A DNA stretch of 20,273 nt from an uncultured virus (IMG/VR IMGVR_UViG_2061766007_000307) (IMGVR_UViG_2061766007_000307); one strand, 5' to 3'. Numbered from the stretch's first letter, positions 2,732 to 18,365 are shown. Notes: generated by a model not told the origin, from the letters alone. Program-made: numbers and translations.

Positions 2732-4018
2732 ATGTTTACATTAAAAGAACTACAAGGATTTGCAGATGTTGGGGAACACTGCGGATCAGTATCTGGAAAG
2801 CCCTTTGTGGTCAATCTGGATCCTAGCGACGAGCTGATATTAGCTAATACATTAGCTGCATGTGATATAGCATCAATAGAATCTGTTGATGTTATAGATA
2901 ATGTCTATGAATTTATGTTGCACGGTGATTCGCCTTTTAATGTACACTACAGTGATGATGATGACAATGAATTGGTGCAGCATTATGACATTAAAGATTC
3001 TATATGGCTTGTTTCGATCGGAGAATGCTTTATAGATAACGGTATTTATAGATACTGCCGTATCACATGTGCGTCTAAGAATGTAATGTTCCGTCCTGAT
3101 CTTATATTAAGGACTGCGATAGATGATCAGCGGGATGCATATTCTAGCTATACTATGGATGTCAAAGCTACAGGCATCTTGCATCAGGTGTCATTGAAAA
3201 TAAAAAATATCGTACACCGCGCAGATAACATCAAGATATATAATGACAGTCTTGACTCTATCATCCCAGCAGATCAATTCACATATTATGCGCCGAGATC
3301 TATATTCAGCGAATATAAAGTTCTTCCAGAGTCCTCTGAAAGTGACGTTGCGAATATAAAGAATATTCTAACATCTCATGTGGAAGATGACATATGGAAA
3401 GGTCCTTATGGAAAGGTGGAAATATCTCCTTATGAATATGTCCGTGCTTGGGTTGTAGCTCATTCGAGAAAGCCATTAGATGGACTTTCTGATGATGATA
3501 TAACATCGTATTTTTTACACAATAATTGCAAAGGCTATGCACTGCTTGATCGTCTGCATACTCCAGAAGACTGGCAGAATATATCTATCCTTGATTCATG
3601 GATAAATGAGAACTCTTGTTTCCATTGCACTGATGTGATCTATGCAAGGACTATATTATCTGTATACGGAACGACGTTAGTATATTCTAATAATGTAGGA
3701 TATTATACTGACGAGTTTTTAACATCAATCCTTGCGCTCGATAAACACTGCAGCAAAAATGCTCTTGTTATACGCGATGTCAAGAGATACCTTGATATGA
3801 TAGATGGTAAAGATTATATCAAGCTCGTCCCTGCATGGCCTGACAAGTATTTCAGAAATTACAAAACTCCTAACGGAGCGCCATGCTATATGGAATATTG
3901 CTATGAGTCTGAAAACATATCTCTCATGAAGGGCAACCCTAGCGTGATCAGATCTAATGAGTTCTGTAGTCCAATCAAGACTCACAAAGATGTGATGAAG
4001 AAACGTATAAATGATTAA
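2732..4018 (+). CDS. Hypothetical phage protein (428 aa)
   Basis: Long ORF with an A-rich start context and no recognisable motif. Confidence 0.8.
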   Translation: MFTLKELQGFADVGEHCGSVSGKPFVVNLDPSDELILANTLAACDIASIESVDVIDNVYEFMLHGDSPFNVHYSDDDDNELVQHYDIKDSIWLVSIGECFIDNGIYRYCRITCASKNVMFRPDLILRTAIDDQRDAYSSYTMDVKATGILHQVSLKIKNIVHRADNIKIYNDSLDSIIPADQFTYYAPRSIFSEYKVLPESSESDVANIKNILTSHVEDDIWKGPYGKVEISPYEYVRAWVVAHSRKPLDGLSDDDITSYFLHNNCKGYALLDRLHTPEDWQNISILDSWINENSCFHCTDVIYARTILSVYGTTLVYSNNVGYYTDEFLTSILALDKHCSKNALVIRDVKRYLDMIDGKDYIKLVPAWPDKYFRNYKTPNGAPCYMEYCYESENISLMKGNPSVIRSNEFCSPIKTHKDVMKKRIND

Positions 4019-4454
4019 AAATGAACGATATATGATAAGAAATGATTCTGAACGATTGACGCTTGAGGATATGTGTGCAAGACTACCATACAAACCGGTT
4101 GTCAGCTTTTACTTGTTTACGATAGGAAAGTCTAAGCAGACTATACTGAGGAGCATCAATCCTACAGAAGGAACTTATCGTATAGGAAACCAGGACTATG
4201 ATGATTTTTCAAGAATCAAGCTGTATCTGAGACCATTATCTAATATGACTGCTGATGAGAAGAAGACATGGAGTCGTATATTGAACGGAGCTGATTCAGG
4301 AGATATATTCGATCATATCATGCTATCACATATAAGTATAGAATCTATAGGTGAGGCTATAGATTTTCTAAATTCTCACTATTTCGATTATAGAGGACTG
4401 ATCGGAAAAGGGTTGGCAATGGAAGCCCCTGAAGGTATGTATCTATTGCAATGA
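4011..4454 (+). CDS. Conserved hypothetical phage protein, paralog of 6633..7070 (start may be 4032)
   Basis: The motifs CARLPY, LYLRPLSNMT and AIDFLNSHYFDYRGLIGKGLA are shared with 6633..7070. Confidence 0.85.
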   Translation: MIKNERYMIRNDSERLTLEDMCARLPYKPVVSFYLFTIGKSKQTILRSINPTEGTYRIGNQDYDDFSRIKLYLRPLSNMTADEKKTWSRILNGADSGDIFDHIMLSHISIESIGEAIDFLNSHYFDYRGLIGKGLAMEAPEGMYLLQ

Positions 4455-4513
4455 GAATACTTTTGTGTATGAGATGAATAGAAAATTTGGTATGTTTTAA
4501 TATGTAAAGACAA

Positions 4514-5356
4514 ATGTTGATATTATTGACTGACAAATGTAATCTGAGCTGCAAGCATTGTATGCACGCAGCATCACCTGAAGGTTCAAGGTTTATGGAT
4601 TATGATCTTTTTGCTTTGTGTATATCACGGGCGAAAGAGTTAGGGTCTAGGGTAATTAATATAGCAGGAGGTGAACCTACGTTATTGAACCCTGAAGAAC
4701 TTAATAAATTCTTGAGTCTTCCACTAGAAGAAGGTTTTGCAGTAGTTCTGGAAACTAATGGATTTTTTCTGTATAATGACAAATCTACAGAATATTTGTC
4801 TGTATTGACAGGACTCATGCGCAAGTATAACAATCTCTGGATTCAAGTATCTTCTTTCAGCGAGTACTATGCTAATCACCAAAAGGTCAAGTCTGTACTT
4901 ATGGACGGTCATAACATGCATGTTAAAGAGCTGGTCAGCAAAGCGAACAGTAGATTTATAGTATCAGGTGATGATAATTCAGGACCTATACAGTTAATAG
5001 CTCTAGGTCGGTGCTCTGAAGGAAATATGCTGGAACGTGCGAAAGTATTCAACAGATTCCCTGGATGTATAAATTCAGCACTTATAGCCAAACAGTGCGA
5101 TCTTAGAGCGCATGCATGCAGAGTACTGGAAGATAACAGAAGGTTCTGTGTCCCTATGATAGACCCTGACGGTGGCATGCATATGGGTGAATCTGTTTTC
5201 TGCAAGACTATATGCAGTATCAAAGATGATATTGACATTATATGTGATTCTATGCAAAATTATAGGCATTGTGGAAAATGTGCCAATTATCATTGGCATT
5301 TCGATAATCCGCAGACTGACAAAGAGAAACAGGTAGCTGAATTGCTAAATTTGTAA
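4514..5356 (+). CDS. Radical SAM protein with Cys-rich C-terminus (SPASM/Twitch-like)
   Basis: CxxxCxxC (CNLSCKHC), GGEP and ETNG motifs, with several C-terminal Cys ending in CGKC. Confidence 0.92.
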   Translation: MLILLTDKCNLSCKHCMHAASPEGSRFMDYDLFALCISRAKELGSRVINIAGGEPTLLNPEELNKFLSLPLEEGFAVVLETNGFFLYNDKSTEYLSVLTGLMRKYNNLWIQVSSFSEYYANHQKVKSVLMDGHNMHVKELVSKANSRFIVSGDDNSGPIQLIALGRCSEGNMLERAKVFNRFPGCINSALIAKQCDLRAHACRVLEDNRRFCVPMIDPDGGMHMGESVFCKTICSIKDDIDIICDSMQNYRHCGKCANYHWHFDNPQTDKEKQVAELLNL

Positions 5357-5361
5357 AATAT

Positions 5362-5715
5362 TTGAAAATGAAGACGACGTTATTAAGAAAGATGCGCAAA
5401 CGAATGGTCAGTATAGACTATTCACAAGAAGGTGTTTTTATCAAGTATCTGGATCAAAATTGCAATATTGTATCAGAGTGGATACATACGGACAGATGTA
5501 GCGGTTTTTTAAGCGTGGAGCATTCGACTGCGTTATGTCCGATATGTTTGGTGCAGAATCTCGGTTCATGCGTACACTCATGTCCCAACATGAAAAGACT
5601 GTTAAAAACAGAAACATTTTACGAGTAAAAAATAAAAAGATCGAATATAAATTTAGCGCTACATCTCACAGATAAAGAGAAGCAGGTTATCAGACTGCTA
5701 TGTTTAGCAAGATAA
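5362..5715 (+). pseudogene. Small Cys-rich protein, apparently interrupted by an in-frame TAA at 5626-5628
   Basis: After the TAA the same frame continues KIKRSNINLALHLTDKEKQVIRLLCLAR* to 5715, filling the gap before the next gene. Confidence 0.5.
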
Positions 5716-5754: not shown

Positions 5755-6558
5755 ATGAAAATCCAGTATTTATCTGATCTGCATCTAGGCAGAAACTATT
5801 CTAATGAAAAGGTGTTGGACTATATTCTCAACAATAAGCCTGATGCTGATGTTCTTGTCATTGCAGGTGATACTGCAAGTATAAGCTCTCTCTTGGGAAT
5901 AGAAAAACACAATGATTTTACACTCAGGACATTTATAACATGGTGTTCTGATAATTTCAAGAAGACCATTATAGTCCCTGGCAATCATGAGTTCTATGAC
6001 CGCACAGAGATGTCGCCATACCTGAACGGTGCGGATATAGAGATAGCTAAGAACGTCTATATCGTCAGCAACAGCATCATCAATGTGGATGATGTATATT
6101 TCGTATGTTCTACATTATGGAGCAATGTAACCAAAGAGAACGAGCCTTATGTAGATTCACGTATGAATGACTGCAGGCTGATTAGCTATTACAACAAGAG
6201 GTTCACTGCGTCTAAATTCCAATATGCGCATACTGAATGTAAAGATTTCCTGACAAATGCATTCACTATGCTCGACAGCAAGAAAGTGCCTTCATGCAAA
6301 ATTGTCGTTGTGACTCATCATTGCCCTCTATTGGCATGCGAAAACCCTGAACATGTTGGTGGCTGTCTTTCATCTGCATTTATTGCTGACGATATGGAAG
6401 ATCTTATCCATGCTTTCTCACCAGCGTATTGGGTATATGGACATACACATTATAATTGTGACGTATCATTCGGAGATACTTATGTAGTATCTAATCAGCT
6501 CGGTTATAGCGACAAAGAATCAGAAAGATTCGATTTTGATAAATTTTTCTATATTTGA
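5755..6558 (+). CDS. Calcineurin-like metallophosphoesterase
   Basis: SDLH, AGD, GNHE, THH and YGHTH motifs. Confidence 0.93.
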   Translation: MKIQYLSDLHLGRNYSNEKVLDYILNNKPDADVLVIAGDTASISSLLGIEKHNDFTLRTFITWCSDNFKKTIIVPGNHEFYDRTEMSPYLNGADIEIAKNVYIVSNSIINVDDVYFVCSTLWSNVTKENEPYVDSRMNDCRLISYYNKRFTASKFQYAHTECKDFLTNAFTMLDSKKVPSCKIVVVTHHCPLLACENPEHVGGCLSSAFIADDMEDLIHAFSPAYWVYGHTHYNCDVSFGDTYVVSNQLGYSDKESERFDFDKFFYI

Positions 6559-6565
6559 TGTTGAT

Positions 6566-6609
6566 ATCTGCTATATTTTTGTTAATTTCACAGCAAAGAT
6601 ATAGCAGAT
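6566..6609. terminator. Long intergenic hairpin (terminator or processing site)
   Basis: ATCTGCTATATTTTTGTT pairs with AGCAAAGATATAGCAGAT, about 18 bp including G-U pairs. Confidence 0.6.
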
Positions 6610-6632
6610 GTTTAATTTAATACTATATAGAC

Positions 6633-7070
6633 ATGGAAATGACCGCAGAAGACAAGGACATTATAATGAAAGAGCTTTGCACAAGGCTCCCTTATGGCGT
6701 CAAAGTCTATAGAGGGTGCCTTCTCAATGTAGTGTCCGTAAGGCCATGGGATGTATATCCTGTAAACGCTGTAGCTTTAGGTGCTGATGATTATATGCCT
6801 GGTAACTATCAGATCGATGATGTTGCTCTATGTCTCCGCCCTATAGCAAGTATGACTGAAATAGAAGAGAAAGAATTCTATGAAACATTAGAGGAAGTCT
6901 ATGATTTCACATTCAGGATGGAGGAATTGCTGGAAGAATTGAAAATGCAGAAAACAATTCCTTGCAGGGCGATTGACTGGCTGAACCAGCATGATTTCGA
7001 TTATAGAGGTCTGATAGAGAGAGGTCTTGCAGCAGATCTGAATTCTATTCAGGATAAGTCGAATTTGTAA
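6633..7070 (+). CDS. Conserved hypothetical phage protein, paralog of 4011..4454
   Basis: CTRLPYGVKV, LCLRPIASMT and AIDWLNQHDFDYRGLIERGLA motifs. Confidence 0.85.
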   Translation: MEMTAEDKDIIMKELCTRLPYGVKVYRGCLLNVVSVRPWDVYPVNAVALGADDYMPGNYQIDDVALCLRPIASMTEIEEKEFYETLEEVYDFTFRMEELLEELKMQKTIPCRAIDWLNQHDFDYRGLIERGLAADLNSIQDKSNL

Positions 7071-7113
7071 TCATTTGATTATCAATAGATTATTAATCTA
7101 AAACATCAGTATA

Positions 7114-7689
7114 ATGAAAGATTTTGAAGAATTTGAATTTGACCATGAAGGTCGCCATTTCGAGAAATGTATTGATAATGAATTCATTCTGGATGCATGC
7201 GATCGTGCGATGGAATGCATCAGAAGCCGCAGGTCGTTCACAAAGATTCTGTATGTGAGCCTTCTCAACGGCAGCCTTCCGTTTGAAGCTGACCTGAAAA
7301 GCAAAGCGTCTTGGAAGATGGATATCATGAGGATATCTTATCATTCGTATGCTGGAACCCAAAGCACAGGAAAGTTCAACATAACAGTCCCTATCAATGC
7401 AGAACGTGTTAAAGGCAGAGATTGTATCATTATTGAAGATATTGTTGATACTGGCAGGACTTTACAGAAGGTTATATCAGACCTTAAAGCTGCAGGTGCA
7501 AAGAGCGTGAAGGTTATATGTGTATTGGATAAAGTAGGCAAGCATCCGAAACTTCCTATATTATTCAGAGGGTTCAACATTGCAGATAAGTTTGTCATAG
7601 GCTATGGTATGGACTATGATGGTAAATTCAGAGATCTGAAGCACATATATGCAGCAGGTCTTGAAAAAGAAGAGGAATTAGTTCTATGA
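7114..7689 (+). CDS. hpt: Hypoxanthine(-guanine) phosphoribosyltransferase
   Basis: LLNGS, the SY flexible loop (HSYAGTQSTG), the PRPP-binding motif IIIEDIVDTGRTL, LDK, and FVIGYGMDY...RDL. Confidence 0.95.
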   Translation: MKDFEEFEFDHEGRHFEKCIDNEFILDACDRAMECIRSRRSFTKILYVSLLNGSLPFEADLKSKASWKMDIMRISYHSYAGTQSTGKFNITVPINAERVKGRDCIIIEDIVDTGRTLQKVISDLKAAGAKSVKVICVLDKVGKHPKLPILFRGFNIADKFVIGYGMDYDGKFRDLKHIYAAGLEKEEELVL

Positions 7690-8375
7690 AGAAAGTTATA
7701 GTTGTTCCAGATGTACACGGAAGGTTGTTCTGGAAAGATGCAATAGATAAAGCCAGAGAAGCCGATGAAATAGTATTCTTAGGCGATTATATAGACCCTT
7801 ATGAATATGAACAAGGTGCTCTATATACAAAGCTTGAATTGATTGACAATTTCAAAGAGATCATTCAGTTCGCTAAAGATAACAGTCCTAAAGTTACACT
7901 CCTACTAGGAAACCATGACGCTCATTATATATCAAATGATGAGGCCATAAGAGGTTCTCGTTATGATGGTGCTATTAAAGAATCATTCTTGAGATGTATA
8001 GATGATAATACTTATCTGTTCAAGAGATGCCATGTCATAGGCAACACTTTGTTCTCTCATGCCGGTGTCACTGCTGAATGGCTGCGCTATAATGGGTATC
8101 TTGGAAATATGGATGATATCAATGAAATAGCATCGTTTATAGAAATGTCGACTATAGAGGATTGTGCACAGGTAGGATATATGCGTGGTGGCTTTTTGAG
8201 ATCTGGTGGACCTTTATGGGCAGACTTAGAAGAACACATAAAGGAAGATAACACGTTGAATTTCAATCAAGTAGTCGGCCATACGCAATGTGTACATACA
8301 GGAGCTGTTAATCATGCAGGCAATGTATCATGCTATGATTCTAGAAGCATACATATCATAGAAGTACAAGCATAA
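7686..8375 (+). CDS. Calcineurin-like metallophosphoesterase (PPP-like)
   Basis: PDVHG, FLGDYID, LLGNHD, SHAG and VGHT motifs; ATGA overlap with hpt. Confidence 0.93.
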   Translation: MKKVIVVPDVHGRLFWKDAIDKAREADEIVFLGDYIDPYEYEQGALYTKLELIDNFKEIIQFAKDNSPKVTLLLGNHDAHYISNDEAIRGSRYDGAIKESFLRCIDDNTYLFKRCHVIGNTLFSHAGVTAEWLRYNGYLGNMDDINEIASFIEMSTIEDCAQVGYMRGGFLRSGGPLWADLEEHIKEDNTLNFNQVVGHTQCVHTGAVNHAGNVSCYDSRSIHIIEVQA

Positions 8376-8401
8376 GAAAGACCACGTGATAAGATAATAA
8401 G

Positions 8402-8449
8402 AAGTAGCACAGAAGGCTTCGTCACATGAGAACCTTTTGTGCTACTTTT
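8402..8449 (+). terminator. Intrinsic terminator closing the metabolic operon
   Basis: AAGTAGCACAGAAGG (8402-8416) pairs with CCTTTTGTGCTACTT (8433-8447), followed by a T-rich tail. Confidence 0.75.
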
Positions 8450-8601
8450 GTCTTATATTTATATTTTTGAGAATACGTGATATATTTTCTAATGAAATCC
8501 GTGTAAATATGAAAAATAAGCATTAACTTTACATTGCATTCAGAAACCGAAAGAGTGAATCTGAACTATGCGATTGATTTCTAATTATAAACAATTCATA
8601 T

Positions 8602-8712
8602 ATGAAAACAAAAAAAATCATTTCAGTAGAGTCTGTTGGAGAACGTGAAGTGTTCGATATCTGTACTGCTGAGAATGTGTACATTACCGCGAATGGTCTG
8701 ATCAACCATAAC
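8602..8712 (+). mobile_element. Naturally split intein, IntC part (37 aa)
   Basis: MKTKKIISVESVGEREVFDICTAENVYITANGLINHN followed by Ser+1. Length and pattern match known IntC fragments such as gp41-1 and DnaE-C. Confidence 0.92.
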
Positions 8713-9288
8713 TCTGGTATCGTGTATGGATCTTCCATCATTATGAACCTTGCTAAAGCCCAGCTGAAGGATTCGACTGAAGTGGTCGGACAGCGAGTGA
8801 TAGCAAAAGCACAGAAGAACCGTTTTTGCAAACCTACTCCTTGTGAGTTCGAGATTCGCTTCGATTCTCCTCTGAACCCTTATAAGGGACTGCAGGACTA
8901 TGTCAATTGGGATTCATGCGGTGTAGGCAGAGGTAAGTTCATCGAAGAAAAAGATTATCTCAAGCTCTCAGCAGCTGCTCAAGACACATGCCGTCTATGC
9001 AGTGCCAATAACAAGTACTACATGCCTAACAACGGACGTACAGTCTGTAAAGATGACGGAACCGAGCTTCCTATCGACGATTTCTTCACGTCAAAAGTTT
9101 TCACAAGAGATGTTCTTGAAAGACTCGACAAGGTCGTGTCACCTATGTACACATATGGTAAGAGTGAGGAAATGGGATTGGCTGAACTTGACAACGAAGT
9201 AGATGACTCTGTTGAGGCTCAAAATGAGATCAAGGCAGAAATGGACAATCTGTACAACGATTTCCCTTTAGATGAAACTGAGGATTGA
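8602..9288 (+). CDS. uvsX: Split-intein C-fragment fused to the RecA/UvsX recombinase C-terminal part
   Basis: Residues 1-37 are intein blocks F/G ending in HN. The extein SGIVYGSSIIMNLAKAQLKD...KAQKNRF...EIRFDSPLNPYKGL matches the UvsX region after the L2 GG motif. No Walker A or B. Confidence 0.88.
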   Translation: MKTKKIISVESVGEREVFDICTAENVYITANGLINHNSGIVYGSSIIMNLAKAQLKDSTEVVGQRVIAKAQKNRFCKPTPCEFEIRFDSPLNPYKGLQDYVNWDSCGVGRGKFIEEKDYLKLSAAAQDTCRLCSANNKYYMPNNGRTVCKDDGTELPIDDFFTSKVFTRDVLERLDKVVSPMYTYGKSEEMGLAELDNEVDDSVEAQNEIKAEMDNLYNDFPLDETED

Positions 9289-9303
9289 TCCTCTCGTGTA
9301 AAT

Positions 9304-9335
9304 ATAGTGTTGATCAAAAAGATCAACACTATTTT
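9304..9335 (+). terminator. Intrinsic terminator-like hairpin after IntC-uvsX
   Basis: Perfect 12-bp stem ATAGTGTTGATC-AAAAA-GATCAACACTAT followed by TTTG. Confidence 0.7.
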
Positions 9336-9360
9336 GTGTTTAATTTAATTATTTTCTTTA

Positions 9361-10392
9361 ATGAAACAGAAATTTTCAAATTTTGAGATCGAAGTCCCTA
9401 AAGGCGTCAAGATCCTCAACCCATGCAAGACAAAAGAAGCTACTCTTGCACTGATGAATATCTACATGCGTACAGCAAATGCTGAAGATATTGAAATCTA
9501 CAAAGCAGCAGAAGGTAATGGCAATGTTTTCCGTAATGAAGATGGAAATGTAGTATTGATCAGACAATCATCATTAGTCGAAAGCAATTATTCAGACATT
9601 GTGAAAGATGATTCTTTCAACGACGACTATTCTATCTGGGGCCACACTAAAGGCCAGAAAGGAGCACGCCAGAAAGTCATGCACAACACAATCTACACAA
9701 TCTTTTCAACACTCAAGAACAACACTCCTCTAAAAGCTGTAGTGACACGACAGGACATCGAGAACAACAGAGTGTACATTGATCTTCCTCAGTTCGAACT
9801 CCGCAACGTAATGCTATCTAAGCCTATGTTCGATTACAGAGATGATATGATGACTATGTATCCTGTAGGCCGCGAGATGTATGTATTCGCAGAAGGAGAT
9901 GCTTCGGGAATCATAATTTCAGATCGTAATTTCATCCCTGATATCTTCACATCAATGCCTCTTCATACAACAGTGAAGTTTACTGTATATAAGACATGCC
10001 CTCATGGATGTATTTGTGAAGCTGAATACGATGGCATCAAGTGCCGCGCTTATGCTAGCGACATGGACAACACATTCAAGGCAGGCAATGTATTCTATGC
10101 TCCTATTGCTTTCAACAAGTCTGGCTTGACAGCTGCGTTGGGTGCAGATATCTGGAACACATACACTAAAATAGTAGAAAAGAACCCTGTACGACAGCTT
10201 ACTGTATATGCTGTTGCGTCTAAGGGATATAAGGTATATGAGACTATTGATGTGAATGGCGAGAGCAAGCGTATCACATTGTTCGTTCCTCAGAGAGTCG
10301 TAGAACCTGCAGTCCTTGAGGTCGGACAGACTGTGTCATTAGAGATCGCTGAGGTACGACCAGAAAATGAATTAGTAATCTTCAAAATCTGA
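9361..10392 (+). CDS. Divergent ribosomal protein S1-like multi-OB-fold protein
   Basis: Three S1-like repeats (AVVTRQD...VYIDL...PVGREMYV...IIISDR; FTVYKTCPHGCICE...ASDM...FKAGNVF; LTVYAVASKGYKV...LFVP...LEVGQTVSLEIAEVRPENELVIF). The linker LGADIW resembles S1 LGEDPW. Confidence 0.65.
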   Translation: MKQKFSNFEIEVPKGVKILNPCKTKEATLALMNIYMRTANAEDIEIYKAAEGNGNVFRNEDGNVVLIRQSSLVESNYSDIVKDDSFNDDYSIWGHTKGQKGARQKVMHNTIYTIFSTLKNNTPLKAVVTRQDIENNRVYIDLPQFELRNVMLSKPMFDYRDDMMTMYPVGREMYVFAEGDASGIIISDRNFIPDIFTSMPLHTTVKFTVYKTCPHGCICEAEYDGIKCRAYASDMDNTFKAGNVFYAPIAFNKSGLTAALGADIWNTYTKIVEKNPVRQLTVYAVASKGYKVYETIDVNGESKRITLFVPQRVVEPAVLEVGQTVSLEIAEVRPENELVIFKI

Positions 10393-10397
10393 TATCA

Positions 10398-11297
10398 ATG
10401 GCAAAGAAACTTGGTGTAACAGAATCTGATGCACTGGCTGTATTACAGCAGCGAAACGCTATGGCGTCAGATACTGAGAACGAAGCTCCATCAGCTCCAA
10501 TAGTGAATGGATGGACTTTAGTAGATTCAGTGGATCTTCCTACCAAAGGGAAATTTTATGGCGAAGTCTGGGTGAAGCCTTTTGACGTTCAGACTGTCCG
10601 TGAAGCATCCTCTATAGACCCTAACAATGCACTAGCAACATTGAAAGGCATGTGCAATATATTATCTAAATGCTGTTATATCATTGATCTGAAAGGCAAT
10701 AAGGTTCCAGGATCTAAATTGAAGAGAGCAGATGCTCTTCCTGTCCTTATGATCATCAGAGCCTTGACATATGTAGATGACTTTACTCTACCTCTTGCAC
10801 AGTCTGTAAAATGTAGTGTATGCGGTAAAGAAATCGAAAGTATCCAATGTGATGGTGCAGCAGTTCTTGAATGGCCTTCTAAATTAGATGAGATAGCAAC
10901 TATCAATGAAGATGGAGAAATCTTGTACGATAAATTCACATTCCATCTTCCTACAATCGAAGAAGTGTCGACATTCATATCTGTATTGCTATCAGATGAT
11001 CCAGCATATAAGCTTGACGAGACTACACGTAATGATGCGTCTTCTTTGCTATATATATGCAAAGAATCACAAAAGGTTCCGCAGATGCACAAAGCACTTA
11101 TACAGGCAAGTTCATCTATGTACAGCATGGATCTTAAAGATATTGCAAAATTCCGCAAGTTCGTCCAGTTCTTGGATAGAAGCATAGGAACAGAGCCTAC
11201 TATAGATACTGAATGTCCTCACTGCCATGAAATGATAAAGATTCCCTTTTCAGTGGGAATCGCTGACATTTGTCTTGCGACTGTTGAGGATTTCTGA
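10398..11297 (+). CDS. T4 gp26-like baseplate hub assembly protein
   Basis: DLPTKGKFY...VKPF, LMIIRALTY, two CxxC motifs (CSVC, CPHC), FHLPT and a terminal DF. Confidence 0.75.
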   Translation: MAKKLGVTESDALAVLQQRNAMASDTENEAPSAPIVNGWTLVDSVDLPTKGKFYGEVWVKPFDVQTVREASSIDPNNALATLKGMCNILSKCCYIIDLKGNKVPGSKLKRADALPVLMIIRALTYVDDFTLPLAQSVKCSVCGKEIESIQCDGAAVLEWPSKLDEIATINEDGEILYDKFTFHLPTIEEVSTFISVLLSDDPAYKLDETTRNDASSLLYICKESQKVPQMHKALIQASSSMYSMDLKDIAKFRKFVQFLDRSIGTEPTIDTECPHCHEMIKIPFSVGIADICLATVEDF

Positions 11298-16452: not shown

Positions 16453-17397
16453 ATGGCAAAACGCGTAAAAAACTTTATTCCCAATTCATCTGCGAATCAG
16501 GTGAAAGCTAAGGTCATGGGAAAGCTAAAGTCTAAGTCACCATTTCCTGAGATGACTAAAAAAGAGCTTGAAGCATCAATGCTCGAGGTATGCAACGTAC
16601 AGGAGAATTTCCCTAAGATCGAGAAGCTTCTGTTCAAACTTACAAACATTGCTCCTGCAGAGAACACTATCGATTCACGTTTGAGATGTGCTTTCACTAG
16701 TGCCAATGCAAAATCAATGACAAAAGTGACTCCGAGACAGATGAGCACAGTCAAAGAGCTTATCGAATGCAAGTTCAATCTTGTGATGTGCTATCCTATG
16801 GATCTGTTGGCTAAGAACATCAAGGAGCTTACAGATGAAGAGTTCGCTGAGATGTATAAGAAGCCAGATGCCAGCGATGCAGAAGAGATCATTAAAGCCA
16901 ACACAATAGCCAACCTTGATTCGTTCAGAGCATATGGCCGCTTCACTAGAGAAGGTAAGAAATGGCCTGATCACTATGACGCTGAATATACAATGTGCGG
17001 CATGGCAGATGAGCTTGTAGAGTTTGCACAGGCATCAGAAGAAGAGAAATCTCATGAATTGGGAGATGTTCTTTGGTACTTTATGGCAATATGCGAGTTC
17101 TGGGACGCAACTAACGACAATATCAAGGCTATTGTAGATGCTGCACAGTCAACGGACCTTTCGAAGGATTACGATTACACTAAAGCGTTCCATAAGTTTG
17201 TCAAGCTTATGCGTGACGAACCTTCTAAGGTAGGTGATTTCGACGTCATCACTCCTATGATGTCTGACGTATTCTGTACACTTGTAAAGTATGCTGGCAG
17301 CATAGACGCTCTTACAGAGGTCGCACTTGAGAACATTGCAAAGATCCGTGATCGTATTGCACGAGGTGTTGTTCGTGGAAGCGGCGACAATCGCTAA
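16453..17397 (+). CDS. mazG: MazG-like nucleotide pyrophosphohydrolase with unknown N-terminal domain
   Basis: GMADELVE, ELGDVLWY and the terminal N..K...R..RGV..GSGDNR typical of phage MazG-like proteins. Confidence 0.85.
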   Translation: MAKRVKNFIPNSSANQVKAKVMGKLKSKSPFPEMTKKELEASMLEVCNVQENFPKIEKLLFKLTNIAPAENTIDSRLRCAFTSANAKSMTKVTPRQMSTVKELIECKFNLVMCYPMDLLAKNIKELTDEEFAEMYKKPDASDAEEIIKANTIANLDSFRAYGRFTREGKKWPDHYDAEYTMCGMADELVEFAQASEEEKSHELGDVLWYFMAICEFWDATNDNIKAIVDAAQSTDLSKDYDYTKAFHKFVKLMRDEPSKVGDFDVITPMMSDVFCTLVKYAGSIDALTEVALENIAKIRDRIARGVVRGSGDNR

Positions 17398-17414
17398 CAT
17401 TTAATTCATTAAAA

Positions 17415-18365
17415 ATGAAAGAGTTACTAATAACAAAACATAAGCCTGAAGCGCTTACTGAATCATTTTGGCCAGATTCTGCCCTAAAGTCTCTGACAAG
17501 TACTTCTCATAATCTTGTGATAGGACCTCCAGGAACAGGAAAGTCTTCTACTATCCAGGCTTATTTGAAAGAGAATGGTTTCTCTTTCATTTATCTGAAT
17601 GGATCAGACGCTAGAGGATTGGATGCTGTCCGCAATACAATCCAGACATTTATAGATTACGATACAGTAGGCGGCAGCGAAAACAGAGCAGTGCTTATTG
17701 ACGAGATCGACGGCTTCACTCCTGCAGCGTTCAATGCCTTGCGAAGCGTAATGGAACATGCGAATGGTGTCAGATTCTTCGCTACAGCTAACAATGGAAG
17801 AGTTATTCCTGCGCCTATCAAGTCCAGATTCAATGTGACTGAGATAGATGTCAACAATAATGAATTCAAGCAGAAGTGGATTCTCCGTATCCAGAAGATT
17901 CTTGAAATGGAGGACATAGCTTTCAACAAAGACGATAAATTCGCGCTAGCTCTGAAAGCTATATACCCAGATTTCCGTAAAGCATGCACATTGGTCAGCC
18001 AAGCTATCACTAATGATAACGTATTGGATACTGCAGTGCTAAGCCAATTAGCCAACAAGAATGATGTAGTTACAGATGAGGAAGCTACATTCAAATGGCT
18101 TATGGGCAGCACTCCAGACAATATATATCACACATTGCGAAGCCTGAGTTCTTATAATGAGATCATGCAGACATTCGCATCTCCATTTATCAATTGGCTG
18201 CAGTCTAAATATGACGCACATAAATGGAGTGAGGTAGCTTTCAAGATAAGCGCATCATACAGCCAATATATGTCTCAGTTCCAGACATGTCCAGACCAGC
18301 TGCTTGTCACTTACGCATATCTTCTGAGCATCAGAGCTATCGCCCTCAATGCTGCATCTAAGTAG
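17415..18365 (+). CDS. Clamp loader ATPase subunit (T4 gp44/RFC small subunit-like)
   Basis: KHKP, Walker A GPPGTGKS, LNGSDARG, Walker B VLIDEID, NALRSVME, TAN and the arginine finger KSRF. Confidence 0.92.
   Translation: MKELLITKHKPEALTESFWPDSALKSLTSTSHNLVIGPPGTGKSSTIQAYLKENGFSFIYLNGSDARGLDAVRNTIQTFIDYDTVGGSENRAVLIDEIDGFTPAAFNALRSVMEHANGVRFFATANNGRVIPAPIKSRFNVTEIDVNNNEFKQKWILRIQKILEMEDIAFNKDDKFALALKAIYPDFRKACTLVSQAITNDNVLDTAVLSQLANKNDVVTDEEATFKWLMGSTPDNIYHTLRSLSSYNEIMQTFASPFINWLQSKYDAHKWSEVAFKISASYSQYMSQFQTCPDQLLVTYAYLLSIRAIALNAASK

Follow-up and report, generated by a model that had tools for sequence, protein, structure and literature searches.

A UvsX recombinase half bearing a split-intein piece, probably completed by trans-splicing from a second locus of a gut jumbo phage

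Inteins in recombinases and the fractured-gene model

The RecA inteins of mycobacteria reside in a RecA-family recombinase and are contiguous. VidaL, a split intein whose split lies near its N terminus, is derived from UvsX; our literature search found no paper joining VidaL and UvsX, save for an unrelated paper on T4 CRISPR escape that gave the single match to 'Vidal'. Likewise, no paper on a phage UvsX intein whose two halves lie apart, or on the particular element treated here, was found in the literature covered, which comprised few subscription journals. Among solved inteins, gp41-1 (PDB 6QAZ and 6RIZ) is the best match of the N-intein described below; it has a canonical class-1 layout, which occurs in replication and repair genes of phage type, and its host gene is that of the gp41 helicase.

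In Dassa et al. 2009 (PMC2677866), all 26 loci are adjacent arrangements, and UvsX figures as a neighbouring ORF only, not as a fractured gene. The authors proposed that, after possible loss of the nuclease gene, the two parts of a fractured gene may come to lie at separate loci, with cyanobacterial dnaE as the separate-loci case. The DnaE intein is, like ours, a natural split intein with its halves at separate loci, but it belongs to a cellular genome, interrupts polymerase III alpha and represents another intein allele. The criterion used by Dassa et al. 2009 is that of adjacent halves around a free-standing homing-endonuclease gene, and at the locus described here we found neither an adjacent half nor such a gene. 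The layout would function as a fractured gene does, of which it is the dislocated derivative.

UvsX itself is split at the site studied here (GG/Cys1...HN/Ser+1 or Thr+1, slashes marking the splice junctions) in Yersinia phage vB_YenM_TG1 (KP202158), Klebsiella phage vB_KpnM_Lion_ER11 (PP738760) and Lak-B (MK250024). The intein pieces of these phages are similar in size to ours, about 95 plus 35-40 residues, and the C-intein is homologous over its whole length. TG1 and Lion_ER11 encode a 307-308-residue N-half (...GG, then Cys1), an annotated homing-endonuclease gene and a 215-residue C-half. In Lak-B5 (L007:1512-4645, with TAG read as Gln), the N-half has 324 residues and the C-half 245, with HN/SGIVY at the junction, and an ORF of 463 residues stands between them; the record (MK250024) is unannotated, and this ORF has no Pfam nuclease match. 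TG1, Lion_ER11 and Lak-B5 all have the halves side by side on the same strand with a gene between them, whereas in our case they lie at separate loci and there is no nuclease gene. The first-pass annotation had taken a split intein on a RecA-type recombinase to be new. This cannot be maintained, since cultured T4-like phages and Lak-B megaphages have uvsX split at this very site by the same intein. Split inteins are present, unannotated or half-annotated, in the uvsX genes of many sequenced phages.

Other states of this site are found as well. Lak-C1 and LR756500 have an intein-less uvsX, and the Lak-C1 gene occupies the same place as that of Lak-B5. Three Lak-like proteins (P0053, P0084, and P0090, 561-567 aa) carry a whole mini-intein at the same UvsX site with an HN/SG junction; their intein is related to ours, but they are single polypeptides splicing in cis, while ours is split. 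Gene 204 of Salicola phage SCTP-2 (656 aa), which gave a tblastn match to query residues 1-100, is a candidate for a further whole intein at this site.

A second uvsX intein site lies about ten residues upstream of the GG/S site. On a 246-kb IMG/VR contig (L096:6913-8942), uvsX consists of two adjacent genes with two inteins: a split intein at the upstream site (NHTY/C), with no nuclease gene between the halves, and a whole mini-intein at GG/S 12 residues later. A second, unrelated-looking intein allele occupies the upstream site (NHxY/C) in other large phages (P0110, P0119, and L095:3492-6838), and in L095 the uvsX halves are separated by two ORFs, one of 125 and one of 425 residues.

The C-half, its conservation and its surroundings

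We analyzed a stretch of 20,273 nucleotides from an uncultured virus, hereafter the window. The features at the C-half are the following.

7686-8375: metallophosphoesterase gene upstream of the C-half
8397..8456, plus strand: strong hairpin followed by a T-run, 3' of the phosphoesterase gene (-27.7 kcal/mol, z -7.2, 0/200 shuffles as stable)
8458..8486, plus strand: promoter-like site with the hexamers TTTATA and TATATT 17 nt apart, the latter preceded by TG (a consensus match only)
8602-9288, plus strand: C-half ORF of 228 aa, UvsX/RecA C-half (ORF call and translation)
8602..8712, plus strand: IntC, the C-terminal split-intein piece, 37 codons including the start Met, with blocks F and G and ending in His36-Asn37
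8713..9285, plus strand: UvsX C-extein of 191 residues, beginning with the Ser+1 nucleophile (SGIVYG...) and comprising the post-L2 core and the C-terminal domain
9286..9288, plus strand: stop codon TGA (ORF translation)
9304..9332, plus strand: intrinsic-terminator-like hairpin from the terminator scan, with a 12-pair stem, a 5-nt loop and a T-run (-15.7 kcal/mol, z -4.95, 0/200 shuffles)

IntC aligns residue for residue with the C-intein pieces of the split uvsX genes of T4-like phages and Lak-B5. Against Pfam Intein_splicing, its residues 4-37 align with the final 35 positions, a match that is weak alone (E 0.056, below the cut-off), and the matches to solved inteins are weak too (Spl DnaX, E 0.078; gp41-1, E 0.16; both to the C-ends). 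The junction codons, HN followed by Ser+1, are at 8710-8715. The C-extein matches the PHROG recombinase (2.9e-17) and UvsX (1.1e-3) families and has neither Walker A nor Walker B. When a profile of the C-half family was compared with solved structures, those of E. coli RecA and phage UvsX matched, starting just past the L2 loop, and by this match the intein site is the end of this DNA-binding loop. In the intein-less UvsX closest to the window C-extein (P0281), extein residue 1 corresponds to residue 232, right after ...AGG. The alignments and profile matches thus bear out the earlier description of a 37-aa IntC with blocks F and G and a Ser+1 on the C-terminal part of UvsX, and the ORF at 8602-9288 is confirmed as the C-half of a split-intein UvsX/RecA recombinase.

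The C-half family has 19 members with 73-100% identity, every one 225-231 aa long, and all nine members aligned to the window C-half start at the intein piece. In an alignment of 11 C-halves extending down to 34% identity, V17, D19, Y27, T29, G32, N35, H36, and N37 are invariant, as is Gly+2, while the +1 residue is Ser in 10 (Ser38 in the window) and Thr in one. Compared with a relative on a 38,530-bp IMG/VR record (L004), dN/dS is 0.10 for IntC (37 codons, dS 0.95) and 0.05 for the whole C-half gene, with dS near saturation. Judged from these substitution rates, the intein piece is under purifying selection, with a dN/dS of about 0.1.

The two hairpins that the first-pass annotation had placed on either side of the ORF are real and strong when their folding energies are set against 200 shuffles each. 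The upstream one, which is missing from the listing of a simple terminator scan, is probably the terminator of the phosphoesterase gene, so that the C-half would likely form its own transcription unit. Relatives L003 and L004 keep the core of the promoter-like site 5' of their C-half genes.

The window also encodes two metallophosphoesterases, a phosphoribosyltransferase, a radical-SAM protein, a clamp loader, a non-specific nuclease and a protein with a weak baseplate-hub match. Just before the C-half come the two phosphoesterase genes, paralogous and calcineurin-like, at about 1 kb from each other (5755-6558 and 7686-8375). Two cassettes, at 4011-5628 and 6633-7689, one with the radical-SAM gene and the other with the phosphoribosyltransferase gene, have no counterpart at this place in L004, a sign that close strains have gained or lost cassettes.

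The region 7000-10500, scored as present in a run when at least half of the sampled words were found, is present in 18 runs from 10 studies, mostly of cattle and pig gut; in RNA run X20, only about 1/20 of the sampled words were present. Among the runs with the region, X1 and X7 have longest contigs of 104 and 137 kb. A megablast search of 7000-11000 against phages gave no match. Contigs from 4/4 runs compared (four studies, one maybe the source) cover about 8376-8700 without a joint, and two contigs of 19,327 and 23,695 bp each span 6500-10500 unbroken, with 59-60 differences. Within the gap 5' of the C-half, the differences between runs fall at 8384-8475, in or just after the hairpin and in the promoter-like stretch, including a 3-nt deletion at 8461 in two runs, and there are none in 8476-8601. 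The order phosphoesterase, C-half, downstream genes is kept in the three records of the relative (L003, L004, and L090; 81% protein identity and about 70% DNA identity to the window), L090 being a 61,104-bp metagenome contig that carries the C-half of this 81% relative.

The first-pass annotation had seen no IntN, RecA N-terminal part or homing endonuclease over 8.6 kb upstream and 11 kb downstream, and the ORF scan, tblastn and profile searches all agree. PHROGs and Pfam searches of the 21 ORFs of the window revealed no N-half, N-intein or homing endonuclease, tblastn of the window with seven UvsX or N-half queries gave no N-half, and the best E value of a lineage-specific N-half profile over its six frames was 0.36. 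The window is thus without an N-half for 8.6 kb upstream and 11.0 kb downstream of the C-half. A weak N-intein-like match (E 0.23) 2.7 kb upstream of the C-half of the relatives was rejected as chance, because it sits in the orthologue of window ORF 2732-4018, which has no intein family match. Also spurious was a genome-contig match (L092), which comprises 28 residues in a high-GC bacterial stretch.

An N-half family and its linkage to the C-half

Of the best 150 proteins that an N-half profile retrieved from 1.84 billion representatives, 40 are 280-340 residues long. The N-half clusters P0166 (56%) and P0177 (50%) come closest to the N part of the intein-less P0281, and a search with P0177 led to eight N-half clusters of 80-100% identity, all 324-325 aa long. 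Each consists of UvsX 1-230, which contains Walker A and B and has GG at its end, and of an N-intein of 95 residues with Cys1 as its first residue. In 17/17 N-halves, GG-Cys1, the Ser and His of block B, and the Gly, Lys, and Thr of Walker A are invariant; in the numbering of P0177, the invariant N-intein residues of these relatives of the window strain are C231, S291, and H294. The family matches RecA and UvsX structures, phrog_97 (1.1e-47) and Pfam RecA (3.6e-12), and its N-intein matches the N part of gp41-1 with an E value of 6.5e-10. The N-half with Walker A/B, GG and IntN for which the first-pass annotation had called was found in relatives, with an IntN of 95 residues, and the window strain is predicted to have one as well.

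In IMG/VR, the general N-half alignment yielded no lone N-half of this lineage among the matches listed (at least 80 loci: 80 by tblastn, 27 of them also by ORF length); four of those listed are adjacent T4-like splits and the others look contiguous. Scanning with the N-intein only (five sequences) gave 11 loci, none of this lineage. One IMG/VR contig, L104, does carry such an N-half, followed by an unknown ORF, a MATCAP-like peptidase, a T4-type portal, a prohead protease and a RimK-like ATP-grasp protein. A walk from L104 via its last gene and a re-scan with P0443 returned L104 alone.

The evidence that both halves belong to one genome comes from these relatives. The C-half P0125 is exactly the protein of L004 and occurs on 45 contigs, the longest of 210,777 bp. 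The longest contig of the N-half P0450, which belongs to the 86% cluster of the P0177 search and is 98.8% identical to the N-half of L104, is also 210,777 bp; the N-half cluster is carried by contigs of 209,531 and 206,667 bp too. None of ten candidate N-half representatives has a 210,777-bp contig; the link is found only among the members of the P0326 cluster. GC content is 37.3% in L104 and 38.2-38.4% in L004 and the window, against 24.5-30.6% at the other UvsX loci compared, and the record names of L004 and L104 bear one dataset number. From the equal 210,777-bp contigs, the matching composition and the shared dataset number, we infer that both halves are encoded in one genome. For the window strain, the contigs of the C-half cluster (up to 60,872 bp) have no size in common with those of the N-half clusters, which fits separation and cannot prove a shared genome in that strain.

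Reciprocal profile searches, each serving as the positive control of the other, place the halves apart. The N-half profile detected the L104 record (E 2.9e-176) and found no match in L004 (38,530 bp) or L003 (11 kb), and the C-half profile detected L004 (E 4.4e-135, 17,059-17,742, minus strand) and found no match in L104. Hence, the C-half of L004 has no N-half within 20.8 kb upstream or 17.1 kb downstream, and the N-half of L104 has no C-half within 7.7 kb downstream; these values, like the 8.6 and 11.0 kb of the window, are lower bounds on the distance between the halves.

Both families comprise 7-8 sublineages at 68-88% identity plus more distant outliers, and this common pattern fits halves that evolve together. 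The most likely partner of the C-half of the window strain is the P0177 sublineage. P0177 1-230 aligns to residues 1-231 of P0281, and the window C-extein starts at residue 232, with no gap and no overlap. Since the exteins abut at P0281 231/232, splicing would neither leave out nor duplicate any residue, and the product would be a complete UvsX of about 421 residues. The proposal first made from the window, assembly by trans-splicing from two loci that are not adjacent, gains its support through the relatives: the N-half family, the 210,777-bp contigs, the location of the halves on separate contigs and the collinear exteins.

A C-half (P0143, 228 aa) and an N-half (P0166 cluster, 325 aa) on separate short contigs are maybe a sister pair; they are 46% and about 49% identical, respectively, to the window family. 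The dislocated layout may be older than the clade of the window.

Trans-splicing, alternative explanations and significance

We consider it likely that the ORF is the functional C-half of a two-piece UvsX whose N-half lies at another locus of the same genome, the two being joined by trans-splicing. The carrier would be a T4-like jumbo phage, uncultured, about 210 kb in size and known mainly from the gut of cattle and pigs; its N-half, of about 324 residues, would be encoded directly upstream of the portal and prohead-protease genes. Each half would be translated separately, the 95- and 37-residue intein pieces would associate into a class-1 HINT fold of the gp41-1 type, and class-1 chemistry would splice the exteins at GG/SG into a UvsX of about 421 residues. 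The putative history runs from intein invasion to a split by a nuclease gene, loss of the nuclease gene and separation of the halves, and the phage lineage appears to stand at the last stage (stage IV) of the Dassa 2009 fractured-gene model.

Splicing itself is what we infer from the sequence, a point that also favors the reading in which the intein pieces serve as a dimerisation module of a non-covalent two-chain recombinase. Split intein pieces do bind tightly before they react. Association without splicing is nevertheless quite improbable, since the residues required for the chemistry are all kept, with Cys1 and the block B His in 17/17 N-halves and the His, the terminal Asn and Ser/Thr +1 in 11/11 C-halves, and about 130 extra residues at the end of the L2 loop would probably disturb the filament. 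If instead the N-half of a fractured uvsX had been lost and the C-half were an orphan remnant, decaying or reused, one would find no N-half in the window or in 38.5 kb of the relative, as is the case. Several observations make this highly improbable: the splicing residues are invariant in 11/11 C-halves down to 34% identity, IntC has the low dN/dS of 0.10, the C-half has its own promoter-like site and terminator, and there exists an N-half family with intact catalytic residues, one member of which has a 210,777-bp contig equal to that of the relative's C-half. A mis-join hiding an N-half or an intein just upstream of 8602, which the first-pass annotation had named as what would overturn its reading, has a negligible probability, and nothing was found in its favor. 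The joint-free contigs in 4/4 runs speak against it, and the two contigs spanning 6500-10500 and the gene order kept in three relative records agree with this.

Trans-splicing from two loci had also been proposed to gate the timing of recombination through separate regulation, and the promoter-like motif bears on this. The motif GTGAT(T)ATAT occurs eight times in the window versus 2.5 in shuffles; inside the promoter-like site of the C-half it takes the form GTGATATAT (8477-8485). Its copies are the following.

Window, plus strand: 2563, 8477, 11357, 12299, 16395, 20168
Window, minus strand: 20055, 18131
Relatives: L004 7062, 9953, 17801; L104 6

Intergenic copies lie roughly 25-125 nt before gene starts, and the motif precedes the C-half both in the window (8477) and in L004 (9953), as it does several other genes. 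The N-half of L104 has GTGTTATAT 27 nt before its start codon. GTGAT(T)ATAT may represent a phage promoter class with an extended -10, and both halves have a similar sequence pattern, GTG(A)T(T)ATAT, upstream of their start codons by 23-115 nt, which suggests one promoter class. A Bacteroidetes-type promoter pattern was found once in the window versus 0.54 expected, which is not significant.

A timing gate, with the halves in differently timed modules and UvsX active only when both are expressed, could be added to trans-splicing from two loci. The location of the N-half directly upstream of the portal and prohead-protease genes and that of the C-half among nucleotide-metabolism and replication genes, bracketed by terminators, speak in its favor, but we regard it as unlikely given the similar promoter-like motif shared by both halves and several other genes, and separate regulation of the two loci as a gate is unsupported. 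It is equally doubtful that the separation of the halves is a recurrent, selected trait of gut jumbo phages in which a head-module N-half and a replication-module C-half act as a post-translational AND gate. If this were true, the gate would complete an essential enzyme only with both modules expressed, and the separation could also guard against recombinational loss of either module.

For two-locus trans-splicing itself, the unusual feature is the dislocation of the halves, foreseen earlier but seldom observed, and not the split intein, and the novelty is narrower than earlier claimed. The locus adds a predicted split pair of the gp41-1 type, with Cys1, Ser+1 and natural GG/SG junctions, to a class of pairs that are no longer rare. 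With respect to annotation, lone 'recombinase' fragments in phage contigs are not necessarily pseudogenes.

If borne out, the final step of the fractured-gene pathway, previously proposed from cyanobacterial dnaE, would have a natural example in a phage, with the halves at separate loci and the nuclease gene gone. At one site of one protein, intein-less genes, whole inteins, genes fractured around an intervening gene and dislocated halves are all seen, and a fifth form, adjacent halves without a nuclease gene, occurs at the neighbouring site (L096). With every stage seen at one uvsX site, the pathway is open to comparative study. Finally, dislocation of the halves persists throughout 7-8 sublineages that turn up repeatedly in the gut samples of ten studies, which suggests that a phage can live stably with an essential recombinase that would be ligated post-translationally.
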